Positions 15,001-18,000 of a stretch of 47,021 nt of DNA are shown piece after piece; the first letter of the stretch is position 1, and each line of letters starts with the position of its first letter. Made by a program: the position numbers. The DNA lies in the NCBI GenBank assembly GCA_002763225.1, contig PFAI01000028.1, forward strand, positions 1-47,021. Direction: 5' to 3'. This DNA comes from Candidatus Diapherotrites archaeon CG10_big_fil_rev_8_21_14_0_10_31_34. Its GTDB lineage: Archaea; Iainarchaeota; Iainarchaeia; Iainarchaeales; 1-14-0-10-31-34.

Positions 15001-18000
15001 AAAAATTGAAGGGCAATATTTTCTTAATTTGAAGAATTCTATTTTAGATTTGTTTTCTAACCCTGCTCTCATTGAACCCAAAGCAAAACCAATGCCTTTT
15101 TTTTCGCATGCCAAAGCAATGTTTTTATTTAATTCAAAAGATTTTTTTGTTCCTCCTGTAATTGGTCTGATGCAAAGCGGGAAAGAAAATTTTTTTCCCA
15201 AAAAAGTTGTTTGGGTTTTAATTTCAGTTAGTTCACAATCCAATAACGGATTATGTATAAGTTCAATCTCTTCGAATAAACTTGTTTTTCTGAATTGGCT
15301 TTCTTTTTTCATTGCAGTTTTTAAATGCAAATCTTTTCTTTTTTCTGTTTTCATTCAAAAAACCCTATTGAAGCATAAGCTACAACACTTGAATTATCCC
15401 CTGTTGTTTTTCCTGAATTGCTATAATCTATGAGTTCAGCTTTTTTTATGCCTTTCTTTTTGCAGTATTGCATTAAAACTTCTATTGCTGAGTGCCCGCA
15501 AATGCTTAACCTTTCATTTTTAACAAGCTCGTGAAATCCTTTTACATTCATTTTTTTGATTAATTTAATTGCCTTGAAATCGTTTTCTTTTGCTTTTTTT
15601 GATGACAGAAAATGAGTGAAATCGCTTGAAGCAATCACTGAAAACTTTTTTCCAAGAATTTTTTCTGTTTCAATCAATGTTTCTGCCAGTTTTTCAAGTT
15701 CTTCAGAATTTTCTGTCATTAAAGTAATTGGAACAATCTTGAATTCTTTAAACAGATACTGCAAGAAAATCAGTTGAATTTCAATTGAATGTTCTTGTAA
15801 ATGAGCTATTTCATCTTTTTTTGCTTTTGAATTTAATTCAGTTATTTTTTCAACAGCTTTTTTGTCTATTTCTGTTTCTCTTAAAGGAGTAACCCATGTT
15901 CCTTCCGGATAAACTGATATTTTTTCTCCGTAACCAGTGTGATTTGGGGAAAGAATCACAACTGTTTCAGGTTTTTGCATTAAAGAATAAGAATATGAGG
16001 CAGTCTGGCCTGAATAAATTGTTCCTGCGTGAGGTGAAATAAAATAATTAGTTTTTTTTGAAGTTTTTTTCACTTTAGAAAAAAAAGTTTTTAATTGAGT
16101 AATTATTTCTTGTTTGTTTTTTGGATAAAAGCTTCCTTTAATTACTGCTTCTCTTAGCATAATAAAAAAATGGGAAAATGTTTTTTTAAAGAGTGTTTTT
16201 GTTAAAGATTTTTTTTTAAACGGTTGTTTTATTAGTATCTTTGATTTGATGAACTTTCTCTTCTGTTTGTTGGACCGTCTCTTCTGTCTGAAGTACTGTC
16301 TCTTCTAAGTTGTTTTCCGCCTTTTTTTCCTCTTCTTTTTGCTTCTGCAGTCCTTTTTTCTTTTAGTAATTCTTCTTTTCCTTCTTTTATTTTGTATTCA
16401 AAGTCTTCAACTGTTACTTTGAATTCTTCTTCGTTTTTTATTTCTTTTCTTTCAGTTAAAGTTTTTTTTGCAAGCATCCAGTAAACTAATGCAAGGCTTT
16501 TTCTTCCTTTGTTGTTGACTGGAATAATTAAATCAACATCTTTTGTGTTGTTGTTTGTTGAACATAAGGCTATTATTGGTATTTTCAGTTTTTTTGCTTC
16601 TTTTATTGCCTGAAAATCTGAATCTGGTTCAGTTACAATTAATAAATCTAATTCAAGAAATTTTTTTCCTTCTGGATTAGTAAAGCTTCCTGGAATAAAT
16701 CTTCCAGTTAATGCTTTTCCGCTTGTTGCTTGAGCAAACTGAATTACCGGAGTTTTTCCGTACAATTTTCTTGATGCAACAATTATTTTGTTTTTATCGT
16801 ATTTTGAAATAAATTTTGATGCTATTTCTATTCTTGAGTCAAGTGTTTGAATATCCATTACTTTTAATCCATCATCTCTTCTTTTATAAATATATTTTTT
16901 CATTCCGTCTGTTTTGTATTTTGTTCCAATATGGGCGCCTGTTTTAAGGTATTTTTCTGAGTCAGTACTTTCATTCATTTTTTATCCCTCATTTGCTGTA
17001 TTTTATTATATCGTCCATTAAATCTACGTGGCTTAAAAGCATTCTTCTGCAGCAATATCTGTCTATTCCTAAACTGTTTAATATTTCTTCTGCGTTTTCT
17101 CCTTTTGAAACTCTTTTAGCAAATTCTTCGTAATATTCTCCTACAACTTTCCCGCATGAAAAGCATCTTACTGGAATTATCATTTTCATTTCACCTCTTT
17201 GAGCTCTGCTTCTTTTTTCTTGCTTTTGTTCCCAATGGTTTTTTTGGTTCAACTCTTCTGTGGTCATCAACCATCAATAATCTATCATATTTAATGTATT
17301 TTTCTTTTAGTTTTTTGTCGTTAGTGTATTCAACTATTGCTTTTGCTATTGCGCTTCTTGCTGTTACTGCTTGGCCCATAAAGCCTCCGCCTTTTACATT
17401 GATTTTAATGTCTGTTTCTTTTATTAAATCTCCGGCCAGTTTTATTGGCTCTAAAATCATTTCTTTAACATAATATGGCTGAACAAATTCGATTTTTCTT
17501 TTGTTTAAAGTTATTTTTCCTGTTCCTGTTTTGATTACTGCTCTTCCAATAGCTCTTTTTTTCTTTGATTTAATCATCATTCCATATTTTTTGCTTCTTT
17601 TTGCCTTTTTTTTCTTTTTTTTTGATGGTTCTGTTTCTTCGTCTTCTGTTGCTTTTTCTTTCATTTCCTCAAATTCTTTTTTTATTTCTTCTTTTTTCTT
17701 TTCCTCTTTTTTTTCAACTGGTTTTTCTTTTATTTCTTTTTTATTTTCAGCAGGAATTTCTTTTTTAAGTTCTTTTGTTTTTTCTTGTGTTTCTTTTTTT
17801 TGGGCTTCTTCTTTTTCTTTTTTAACTGGTTCTTTTTTTGTTTCTTCTATTTTTTCATTTGTTTTTGATGAAACTTTTTCTAAAATTTTCTTTTGTTCTG
17901 TTTCAGTCATTTAATCACCATTTTGCTCCAAGCAATTTGCTTATTTCCCCTAATTGAACTGTTTTTTCGTTTGTCTGGCTTTTTGCTTCTTTTATTTCAA

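Follow-up and report, generated by a model that had tools for sequence, protein, structure and literature searches.

Low-complexity regions rich in alanine, glutamate and lysine have been surveyed in bacterial and archaeal ribosomal proteins (r-proteins), where most are C-terminal and were judged to be surface-located (Ntountoumi et al. 2019, NAR, PMC6821194). That published survey, which covered 102 archaeal genera in UniProt 2017 and counted 117 such regions in all archaeal r-proteins, with a mean length of 36 aa, found them to be frequent in archaeal S3, S24, L10 and L12, and its authors infer function from this prevalence (PMC6821194). In the Parcubacteria, uS19 bears an alanine/lysine-rich C-terminal region of ~25 aa (Tsurumaki et al. 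2022, PMC9297842). Eukaryotic snoRNP proteins carry lysine-rich disordered domains composed of K, D and E (PMC11528048), and mosquito RpS6 and RpL23a have lysine-rich extensions that resemble histone H1 (Hernandez & Fallon 2007, cited in PMC11764897). Among solved structures, PDB chain 9o17_AC is a uS3 of 318 aa in which only residues 3-220 align with the fold, and the uS4 of the same entry has 218 aa. Haloarchaeal uS3 also has a tail of ~100 aa, which is acidic.

Here we analyse tails on the r-proteins of Candidatus Diapherotrites archaeon CG10_big_fil_rev_8_21_14_0_10_31_34, taking as our window the whole 47,021-nt stretch of contig PFAI01000028.1 (see table). As in the published survey, the regions are of low complexity, dominated by A/E/K and placed at protein termini, and S3, S24 and L10 are tailed here, whereas L12 is not. 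The present case differs in that one genome alone carries about a dozen, each 45-105 aa long and two of them N-terminal (uS9 and eL32), and in that tails are also found on uS4, uS9, eL32, uL24, uL29, uL16, eS8 and eL43, proteins which are not singled out in the main text of the survey, although its supplement may list some of them (PMC6821194). The uS3 of 9o17, an archaeal-type ribosome, likewise has a C-terminal tail of ~100 aa, but the habit is less general there, with uS9 (134 aa), eS8 (125 aa) and eL32 (161 aa) at or near their usual length. The CPR additions are also lineage-specific, charged, low-complexity sequence on the r-proteins of an ultra-small, genome-reduced prokaryote, but they are bacterial, much shorter, and occur alongside an overall shrinkage of the ribosome (PMC9297842). 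The snoRNP and mosquito tails are similarly disordered, lysine-rich and electrostatic, and belong to ribosome-related proteins, but are eukaryotic (PMC11528048, PMC11764897). Nop5 (272 aa, domain 34-259) and fibrillarin (220 aa, domain 5-219) of this genome are without such tails. Judging from the listings returned by full-text literature searches, we found no description of r-protein tails in DPANN or Diapherotrites. The genome-wide survey's note had presented r-protein expansion in this archaeon as new; with low-complexity tails on prokaryotic r-proteins already surveyed (PMC6821194), that was an overstatement, and the tails are an extreme instance of something already described in prokaryotes.

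Table. Features of the uS9 locus and r-protein tails in the window; coordinates are positions along the whole contig PFAI01000028.1.
Feature	Position	Strand	Basis
uS9 gene, 239 aa including the N-terminal extension	17191..17910	(-)	ORF list and Pfam PF00380
uS9 residues 1-95, variable K/E-rich polyampholyte tail	17626..17910	(-)	frame openness, codon periodicity, composition
uS9 residues 96-115, conserved basic arm before the fold (SKKKKKKAKRSKKYGMMIKS)	17566..17625	(-)	alignment of 31 homologues
uS9 residues 116-239 plus stop, canonical fold and C-terminal basic tail	17191..17565	(-)	Pfam, solved homologues, pLDDT
SD-like GGTGA, overlapping the uL13 stop (TGA, 17915-17917), 4 nt before the uS9 ATG	17915..17919	(-)	sequence reading
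uL13 gene	17915..18343	(-)	ORF list, Pfam; 4-nt gap between uL13 stop and uS9 start
eS24 residues 72-120, K/E-rich C-terminal region, only ~25 residues beyond the Pfam domain	4156..4302	(-)	Pfam, composition
eS6 residues 120-165, C-terminal tail	7050..7187	(-)	Pfam S6e covers 1-119 of 165
uS2 residues 196-248, C-terminal tail, R/K/G/S-rich, not K/E	16235..16393	(-)	Pfam, relatives, composition
uS4 residues 181-256, C-terminal tail	19953..20180	(-)	S4 domain ends at ~150; solved chains; relatives
eL32 residues 1-98 of 216, N-terminal tail	27100..27393	(-)	Pfam 120-216; solved chains
uL24 residues 116-164, C-terminal tail	29744..29890	(-)	Pfam ends at 113
uL29 residues 67-170, C-terminal tail, lysine-rich, +0.39 per residue	31513..31824	(-)	Pfam covers 7-64
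uS3 residues 210-292, C-terminal tail	32033..32281	(-)	Pfam ends at 182; solved chains

The uS9 gene follows directly on uL13, an arrangement shared by 30/30 related loci, and its product falls in a 90% cluster of a public sequence collection with 5 members from 5 contigs. The canonical domain accounts for residues 116-239 only (Pfam Ribosomal_S9; 107.2 bits, cut-off 22.5), the family profile being matched above its curated cut-off over positions 2-121 of 121. Solved archaeal uS9 is matched with an E-value of 6e-34, and the alignment begins at query residue ~114; all 60 of the solved uS9/S16 chains listed are 125-172 aa long, the archaeal ones 132-142 aa. The genome-wide survey's note had given uS9 an N-terminal extension of ~115 aa, and this is confirmed, with Pfam and the solved chains covering the core alone. 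Its count of uS9 frames in relatives was also reproduced: 40/41 genomes match, with open frames of 136-294 aa, a length that overstates uS9 in two loci (L011 and L025) where the frame continues back into uL13. In the AlphaFold model the fold has a pLDDT of at least 95 over residues 111-210, and the protein closes on a basic Lys-Arg end: among 31 homologues R239 never varies and K238 is at least 90% conserved.

The sequence before this fold is of two kinds. The K/R-rich arm of residues 96-115 aligns across the 31 homologues and was found in 30/30 related loci, and it has the positive charge and the conserved sequence looked for in classical rRNA-penetrating basic extensions. The tail upstream of the arm evolves fast and does not align. 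Its K/E part shows neither trait, with no conservation and a net charge per residue of +0.07 (residues 1-108: K 35%, E 28%, charged fraction 0.65). Weak in-frame tandem repeats of period 15 lie within it at 17674-17713 and 17779-17810. The model assigns pLDDT values of 41-57 to residues 21-110, a low-confidence stretch that contains the helices drawn at 28-47 and 71-85, and a value of ~80 to a helix at residues 3-26.

The reading frame argues that these extra 115 residues are very probably translated, rather than the result of a mis-called start, and that the tails are real. The 345-nt extension is free of stops in the uS9 frame, whereas the other two sense frames contain 8 and 9, and its codons are strongly periodic, with G making up 34% of position 1 and 3% of position 2. 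The uS9 start lies close to the uL13 stop (-17 to +21 nt) in 28/30 related loci, whose tails range over 12-117 aa; in the remaining two (L011 and L025) the frame enters uL13 and an internal ATG stands close to the uL13 stop. Openness, periodicity, the GGTGA sequence and the position of the start near the uL13 stop together answer a worry voiced in the earlier note, that some N-terminal tails could stem from a start called too far upstream. Translation from the two in-frame ATGs of codons 110-111, just before the fold, would yield a uS9 of normal size and turn the K/E stretch into an untranslated spacer. This is extremely improbable: the 327 nt upstream of the ATG pair are open in the uS9 frame only, with codon periodicity, and the 40-349 nt between uL13 stop and uS9 fold are open in that frame in 30/30 loci. 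Moreover, GGTGA precedes the first ATG, whereas no SD-like motif was seen before the internal pair on reading the sequence, and Met110/111 is not conserved, close relatives having I, H, N or L instead. A look-up of RNA runs listed none for the uS9-uL13 stretch. Where contigs of 4 other groundwater runs covered this stretch, they matched it without differences or indels, in a comparison where contigs drop rare variants and 17673-17748 is masked as repeat; the masked segment was spanned by one contig in two runs (X3, X4), at the same length.

Taking the lengths of solved PDB chains as a baseline, the solved archaeal homologues of uS9, uS3, eL32, uS4, uL16, eS8 and eL43 are ~60-100 aa shorter than the proteins encoded here. 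Thus uL16 has 245 aa (168-182 solved), eS8 206 aa (125-133) and eL43 154 aa (78-102). Solved archaeal eL32 chains of 123-161 aa align from query residue 99 or later; those of uS3 have 186-229 aa, plus one of 318 aa, and those of uS4 159-181 aa, plus one of 218, with the alignment ending by query residue 175. The eL32 start overlaps the uL6 stop by 1 nt. AlphaFold gives eL32 residues 1-90 a pLDDT of 33-56 and the eL32 fold mostly 56-90, and a helix is drawn at residues 8-33, block means over residues 1-30 being 48-55. Eleven tails are C-terminal and two N-terminal, and in total ~1000 tail residues on 13 r-proteins make up roughly 12% of the residues of the 53 r-proteins identified. Most of the extensions that had been listed for this genome are real. 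The 'tail' of uL10 is in part what we take to be the ordinary stalk hinge, that of eS24 reaches only a short way beyond its domain, and that of uS2 is of another composition.

Charged sequence was then counted across the genome, on a gene set re-derived with our own crude caller (1194 genes) and with a charged window defined as 40 aa containing at least 60% K+E+D+R. Pfam was scanned for 438/1194 proteins, namely the genes of the cluster, all 50 proteins with a charged window, and all proteins of 40-430 aa with K+R of at least 17%. The total of 50 proteins is the number that the genome-wide survey's note had given, reached here with independent gene calls. Charged windows occur in 13/53 r-proteins and 37/1141 other proteins (odds ratio 9.7, Fisher p 6e-8); the enrichment among r-proteins claimed in the note therefore holds, at this count in place of 15 of ~62. 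Two of the 13, eL19 and uS12, were not accepted as added tails, their basic segments lying inside or adjoining the Pfam-matched region; eL43 and eS6 have tails yet fall under the 60% threshold. The 37 non-ribosomal proteins, where the note had 35, include aminoacyl-tRNA synthetases, DNA ligase, DnaK, GrpE and topoisomerase VI B. The presence of similar stretches in so many other proteins points to a proteome-wide habit.

Pooled, the tails contain 34.8% K and 21.5% E. They are poor, relative to the proteome, in residues that have AT-rich codons (N, I, F, Y, L) (N 2.0% vs 5.3%, I 4.0 vs 8.6, F 1.0 vs 6.1, L 3.3 vs 9.7), and R is not enriched (2.2 vs 3.2), though polypurine DNA gives R as often as E. 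AT bias alone is therefore insufficient. Across 20 genomes with a locus GC of 27-59%, the total length of the C-terminal tails is unrelated to GC (rho -0.06), while tail K decreases (rho -0.72) and tail A increases (rho +0.89) as GC goes up; because the genomes are related to one another, p-values for the correlations are overstated. A caveat of the earlier note, that AT-rich DNA easily yields such sequence and the tails may be neutral slippage products, is countered by the unrelated length and the depleted residues as far as AT-richness alone is concerned. Net charge per residue is +0.04 to +0.10 in 8/13 tails, and remains near zero across genomes over the same range of locus GC. The tails of uL29, uS2, eS8 and eS24 are more basic and that of uL10 is slightly acidic, so that the polyampholyte reading offered in the note suits most tails. 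Charges are well mixed in 8/9 tails tested (kappa 0.02-0.15; uL29 0.32), and against 500 shuffles opposite charges were enriched at i,i+3 / i,i+4 in none of 9 (z -2.4 to +0.2). Nine tails hold 0-7 prolines each (4 in uS9, 5 in uS4, 7 in eS8), uS3 alone having none. The tails are predicted to be disordered.

Alignment of relatives revealed no conserved motif inside the K/E parts of the tails. The uS9 tail contains IKKEFEE, which resembles a pattern found order-wide after the uS4 fold, [LIM]KK.FEE[VA]; this likeness was set aside, as the loose pattern recurs at 25 places in the proteome and in uS4 falls where solved chains still align (to query residue 175). Sharing of DNA cassettes between different tails was not supported: the longest exact match was 21 nt, and 100 codon shuffles gave 20.6 nt on average and 27 nt at most.

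Throughout the order uS3, uS4, uS2 and eL32 carry tails, whose presence is conserved across genera; for uS9 and uL24 it is conserved in part, and for uL29 it is not. A uS3 tail extends 31-168 aa beyond position 195 of this genome's uS3 in 20/20 relatives with a match, and of 121 genomes sampled from the phylum 118 matched, with uS3 open frames of 193-596 aa (mostly 255-380). An eL32 tail of 55-146 aa is present in 16/19 genomes with a complete eL32 N-terminus (this genome counted). R/G-rich uS2 tails of 20-85 aa occur in the 20 relatives, with RGG-box-like R/G-richness in 17/21 genomes compared. The tails of uS9, uL29 and uL24 differ greatly between close relatives. For uS9 the genus has tails of 115, 108, 72, 71, 69 and 50-57 aa, and the rest of the family tails of 117, 35 and ~34 aa; for uL24 they range over 5-93 aa; and uL29 is long only here (170 aa) and in one relative (G003, 104 aa), with 66-95 aa in 17 other matched relatives. 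We infer that these three tails appear, vanish and change in length at the level of a genus or family. By longest-ORF length, uS13, uL15 and uL23 are long in other families and not here. The note's description of the tails as real, lineage-specific and variable in length thus fits what we see, a lineage-wide feature in which the uS9, uL29 and uL24 tails come and go.

Repeats within the tails are weak, with periods that are mostly multiples of 3 (12, 15, 27, 33, 39, 42, 45, 57), and those of the uS3 tail are in-frame tandem repeats of period 12-57. Five of the 11 C-terminal tails end no more than 10 nt from the next gene; the other six do not abut one, eS8 being followed by an opposite-strand gene and eS24 by a 247-nt gap. 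A translated spacer kept by operon coupling was rejected as a general explanation, as only these five abut. On uS3, uS4, uS2 and eL32 the tail has probably been kept order-wide by selection against truncation. This reading draws on the uS3 tails, which are retained in 20/20 relatives although 75/97 of the tail's codons could become a stop by a single substitution, and although divergence at four-fold sites reaches 0.24-0.43 within the genus (0.29-0.65 after JC correction) and approaches saturation between families. The retention argument uses a rough neutral expectation: four-fold sites are biased, and slippage is able to rebuild a tail once truncated. Where a C-terminal tail ends next to the following gene, premature stops could also be selected against for the sake of translational coupling and not for any use of the tail.

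What the tails are for has to be weighed against the view that they are for nothing: translated, but slippage-made in-frame expansions tolerated at exposed termini, filtered for a soluble, non-hydrophobic composition and hard to lose. The in-frame tandem repeats accord with this, as do the fast turnover of length and sequence, the lineage-specific tails of uS9, uL29 and uL24, a composition that tracks GC, the similar stretches in 37 non-ribosomal proteins, and the fact that the tailed proteins differ by family. Loss would also be hampered by gene order. The start codons of uS9 and eL32 are in every case adjacent to the preceding stop, and shedding an N-terminal tail needs a new start beside that stop, while a premature stop in a C-terminal tail within an operon, where 5/11 abut the next gene, would uncouple that gene. 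However, the remaining 6/11, eS8 and eS24 among them, are free of such a neighbour, the uS3 tails persist in the face of their stop-prone codons, r-proteins are enriched ~10-fold, and net charge stays near zero over a wide range of GC. We regard complete absence of function as unlikely, if still a serious contender.

Specific functions appear less probable again. The genome-wide survey's note took the tails for a counterpart of rRNA expansion segments, tethering mRNA, factors or ribosomes, a role for which uS3, uS4 and uS2 would be the working core. The small-subunit tails found order-wide do sit on proteins that we take to lie at the mRNA entry (uS3, uS4) and at the platform or mRNA exit (uS2) of solved ribosomes; the uS2 tail is R/G-rich in the manner of RGG boxes, and the uL29 tail is strongly basic on what is presumably a protein of the tunnel exit. 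Most tails are nevertheless near-neutral, which is poor for RNA binding, and their K/E parts are without a conserved motif, making such tethering improbable. Rigid single alpha-helices of the ER/K type, serving as spacer arms of defined length, are very unlikely indeed. A high E+K content favours helix, and AlphaFold draws helices in uS9 (3-26, 28-47 and 71-85) and eL32 (8-33), but apart from uS9 3-26 these are of low confidence, the opposite-charge spacing expected of such helices is not enriched, prolines interrupt the tails, and tail lengths are not conserved.

Overall, we lean towards an explanation in which the tails are translated, grow in frame, are partly selected and form a passive charged brush. 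Growth appears to proceed through in-frame tandem duplication at protein termini, as the repeats strongly suggest, with an amino-acid make-up that tracks genome GC (K/E in AT-rich genomes, A/E/K in GC-rich relatives) while charge stays near neutral and well mixed. The product would be a charged brush, flexible and strongly hydrated, that faces the solvent, a surface position on the ribosome that we assume from the place of these termini in solved homologues. It would act passively through bulk and charge, by spacing, solubility or weak non-specific contacts, and would have no defined binding site. As a mode of action the brush is a tentative proposal, about evenly balanced with the tails having no function, and the turnover in length of uS9, uL29 and uL24 is also what tolerated slippage would give. 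A bolder and improbable extension is that the uS3 and uS4 tails (at the mRNA entry), the R/G-rich uS2 tail (at the mRNA exit) and the ~1000-residue brush form a selected, lineage-specific device for mRNA handling or for ribosome spacing and solubility in an ultra-small cell with few accessory factors, a protein counterpart of eukaryotic rRNA expansion segments that would have independent origins in several DPANN lineages.

Trimming of the ribosome is what one expects of genome-reduced prokaryotes. Against this expectation, added disordered tails here amount to ~12% of identified r-protein residues, and part of that cost is carried order-wide. In practical terms, automatic start trimming or length filters would wrongly shorten or discard such r-proteins, and marker-gene phylogenies should be built with the tails masked. 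More generally, the Iainarchaeota offer a natural system in which to ask whether disordered charged tails on a core cellular machine are selected, or are the product of a slippage ratchet.

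The source genome (1.04 Mb, 30.8% GC, 81% complete) contributes the window as its entire 47-kb contig C60, whose minus strand carries the main ribosomal protein gene clusters. Our own crude gene caller returned 1194 genes for this genome, and charged windows, defined as 40 aa with at least 60% K+E+D+R, occur in 50 of the encoded proteins. A Pfam scan of 438 of the 1194 (the cluster, all 50 window carriers and every 40-430-aa protein with at least 17% K+R) identified 53 ribosomal proteins, with P1 added by eye and standing outside the 53. The genome-wide survey's note had described K/E-rich ribosomal protein tails, and this observation is confirmed: 13 of the 53 ribosomal proteins contain a charged window versus 37 of the 1141 others (odds ratio 9.7, p 6e-8), or 11 versus 31 when both basic and acidic residues are needed. 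Compared with archaeal chains of known structure, several are longer by about 60-100 aa: uS3 has 292 aa (solved chains 186-229), uS4 256 (159-181), eL32 216 (123-161), uL16 245 (168-182), eS8 206 (125-133) and eL43 154 (78-102). Thirteen delimited tails make up 1015 of the 8693 residues in the 53 proteins. The windows of eL19 and uS12 are basic segments in or beside the Pfam-matched region, and part of the uL10 tail is presumably the ordinary stalk hinge. Long uS3 tails also exist outside this lineage, since solved entry 9o17 has a uS3 of 318 aa and a uS4 of 218 aa.

Many housekeeping enzymes are among the 37 non-ribosomal genes in which K/E-rich stretches of 40-100 aa are inserted or appended; some 16 other carriers lack a Pfam match. 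Elsewhere, uL10/P0 ends in ...KKGEEK without a GLGALFG-type C-terminal peptide, which the neighbouring P1 has. The 336-nt spacer between their genes holds repeated short hairpin-like units (AACC-T-run-AAAAAGGTT), then AGGAGG, and next an acidic mini-frame of 14 codons (MDEEENNEETEETS, stop), with 30 further acidic codons in the same frame beyond it. Two ATPases contain intein splicing domains: a HerA-like one, which also has a LAGLIDADG domain, and one of type II/IV secretion.

Coordinates of the features discussed, in the window or on other contigs of the same genome
Feature	Location	Strand	Remarks
uS9 frame	window 17191-17910	-	239 aa
uS9 helix, residues 3-26	window 17832-17904	-	MTETE...KIEE
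uS9 IKKEFEEMKE	window 17656-17685	-	
uS4 [LIM]KK.FEE[VA] site	window 20187-20210	-	past the uS4 fold
uS2 C-tail	window 16235-16393	-	
RpoN, longest frame	window 16989-17270	-	TTG start; 80-nt overlap with uS9 3' end
LAGLIDADG-like ORF	window 402-965	-	free-standing
uL10/P0	C11 1299-2411	-	370 aa
P1	C11 669-962	-	97 aa
HerA-like ATPase	C25 4974-9362	+	intein
Type II/IV secretion ATPase	C28 18010-20277	+	intein
ThrRS	C28 15818-17725		K/E-rich stretch
DNA ligase	C13 2007-3869		K/E-rich stretch
Topoisomerase VI B	C15 11257-13059		K/E-rich stretch
DnaK	C46 5294-7180		K/E-rich stretch

In uS9, residues 116-239 give a full-length match to the Pfam Ribosomal_S9 profile. Archaeal uS9 chains in solved structures have 132-142 aa and align only from about residue 114, which leaves some 105 extra residues; the longest of 60 listed solved uS9/S16 chains has at most 172 aa. 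The survey had worried that the start codon was called too far upstream. Several independent lines of sequence evidence indicate that the extension is translated. Its 345 nt contain no stop in the uS9 frame, against 8 and 9 for the two remaining sense frames, and G occupies 34% of first but 3% of second codon positions, so the frame does not owe its openness to purine richness. The uS9 ATG lies 4 nt past the uL13 stop, which an SD-like GGTGA overlaps, while sequence inspection found no comparable motif upstream of the internal ATG ATG at codons 110-111, and close relatives have I, H, N or L in place of the internal Met. Of 30 loci, each from a different genome of the order, 28 have their first uS9-frame start -17 to +21 nt from the uL13 stop, and their extensions range from 12 to 117 aa; in the remaining two the frame extends back into uL13, with an internal ATG near its stop. 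Since starts track the uL13 stop in this way, the spacer is always coding, whatever its length. Contigs from four other groundwater runs are identical to the stretch wherever they cover it, and in two of the four a single contig bridges the repeat-masked part at unchanged length; these contigs, like the 90% cluster of the protein (5 members, 5 contigs), may stem from one sampling campaign. Source names of uS9 homologues include Candidatus Diapherotrites, Candidatus Iainarchaeum and archaeon GW2011_AR10. At the other end of the gene, the likely true start of RpoN is internal, immediately past the uS9 stop.

Residues 1-95 of uS9 are K/E-rich, and 96-115 form a lysine/arginine block conserved throughout the order; the part upstream of this block is not alignable outside the genus. 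Residues 1-108 contain 35% K and 28% E, with a charged fraction of 0.65, a net charge of +0.07 per residue and little N, I, F or L. An AlphaFold model built with 31 homologues reaches a pLDDT of at least 95 in the fold and 41-57 over residues 21-110, a stretch that includes helices at 28-47 and 71-85; a helix at 3-26 stands above the rest of the tail (pLDDT ~80). Charges are well mixed (kappa ~0.15), and we read the tail as a probably disordered polyampholyte with transient helices. An ER/K single helix was rejected, given the low pLDDT over 21-110 and opposite charges at i,i+3/i+4 that are no commoner in the tail than in shuffled sequences. Five of the ten closest homologues share MTETE(K/Q/S) at the N-terminus. 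IKKEFEEMKE is conserved in some genus members, and a similar [LIM]KK.FEE[VA] occurs in most of the order at a uS4 site still within the region aligning to solved uS4; with 25 loose matches in the proteome, this likeness may be chance.

Tails recur in relatives, compared over 20-kb cluster regions of 20 genomes from 15 families (locus GC 27-59%). Past source-genome position 195, uS3 continues for 31-168 residues in all 20, and for at least 53 in 19. The corresponding range for uS4 past position 165 is 24-121, of which about 10 fewer are tail, as solved uS4 aligns to 175 at most. Tails reach 20-85 residues in uS2, R/G-rich in most genomes, and 5-93 in uL24, and an N-terminal eL32 tail of 55-146 aa is present in 16 of 19 genomes with a complete N-terminus, the source genome counted. 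In a phylum sample, uS3 open frames span 193 to 596 aa, mostly 255-380 (118 of 121 genomes matched). Long uL29 is confined to the source genome and one relative, G003, and which proteins have tails seems to vary between lineages. Among longest-ORF lengths with starts unchecked, uS13 reaches 239 aa in relatives (155 in the source genome) and uL15 188 (137); by longest ORF, uL23 and uS5 also have long forms in other families and are short here. The uS2 C-tail of the window is R/G/K-rich, not K/E-rich; R/G-richness is shared by 17 of 21 compared genomes, and tails of GC-rich relatives resemble RGG repeats, for example RGGRFGRDRDDRGFGSRGGGRFGGGRR.

AT bias, suggested earlier as a source of the tails, is not the sole one. 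N, I, F, Y and L, expected from such bias alone, are depleted 2- to 9-fold; E is about ten times as frequent as R (21.5% vs 2.2%), where random polypurine DNA would give R = E; and GC shows no relation to the C-tail residues added up over uS3, uS4, uS2 and uL24 (rho -0.06; 20 kin genomes, descriptive only). Tails of GC-richer genomes contain less lysine and more alanine, and their per-residue net charge keeps to the range -0.05 to +0.11, again descriptively among kin. According to the strongest rival explanation, most tails arose by slippage and are tolerated. With lengths that run from 50 to 115 aa in the genus, the uS9 tail fits such a labile class. Within the tails, Tandem Repeats Finder detects weak repeats whose periods, mostly multiples of three, are as in-frame duplication would leave. 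Neither the copying of sequence cassettes from one tail to another nor a rigid arm on eL32 was supported in this genome. In uS3, 75 of 97 tail codons are one substitution away from a stop. Within the genus, four-fold sites of ribosomal protein cores show 24-43% divergence (JC-corrected 0.29-0.65 per site), and between families they near saturation, so that neutrality would roughly predict several nonsense hits per genus-level pair. Because the three genus members compared nevertheless have uS3 tails of 97, 95 and 89 aa, we infer selection against their truncation. Slippage could, however, regrow tails, and a premature stop in an operon would uncouple the next gene, although the latter is no general explanation because 6 of 11 C-tails adjoin no downstream gene.

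The survey's interpretation, a lineage-specific polyampholyte coat of the ribosome, stands in part: the tails are real, evidently translated and order-wide on uS3, uS4, uS2 and eL32, but A/E/K tails of ribosomal proteins had already been surveyed. In their survey of low-complexity regions in prokaryotic proteomes, Ntountoumi et al. 2019 (PMC6821194) describe such regions as frequent in ribosomal proteins, A/E/K-rich, located at the ribosome surface and mainly C-terminal; the commonest archaeal carriers are S3, S24, L10 and L12. A CPR study (PMC9297842) reports an A/K-rich addition of ~25 aa on uS19. Among the papers listed in full-text searches of the literature, none dealt with tails of this kind in DPANN. 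The tails described here are a rather extreme case of these already known regions.

As to function, sequence and structural model point to a brush on the solvent side of the ribosome, rather than a specific binding site, as the most likely reading. Such a hydrated, flexible brush would act through bulk properties, because the tails combine near-neutral mixed charge with K/E parts free of conserved motifs, low structural confidence and fast turnover. For the order-wide tails of uS3, uS4 and uS2, tethering of mRNA or factors is a possible, candidate role.
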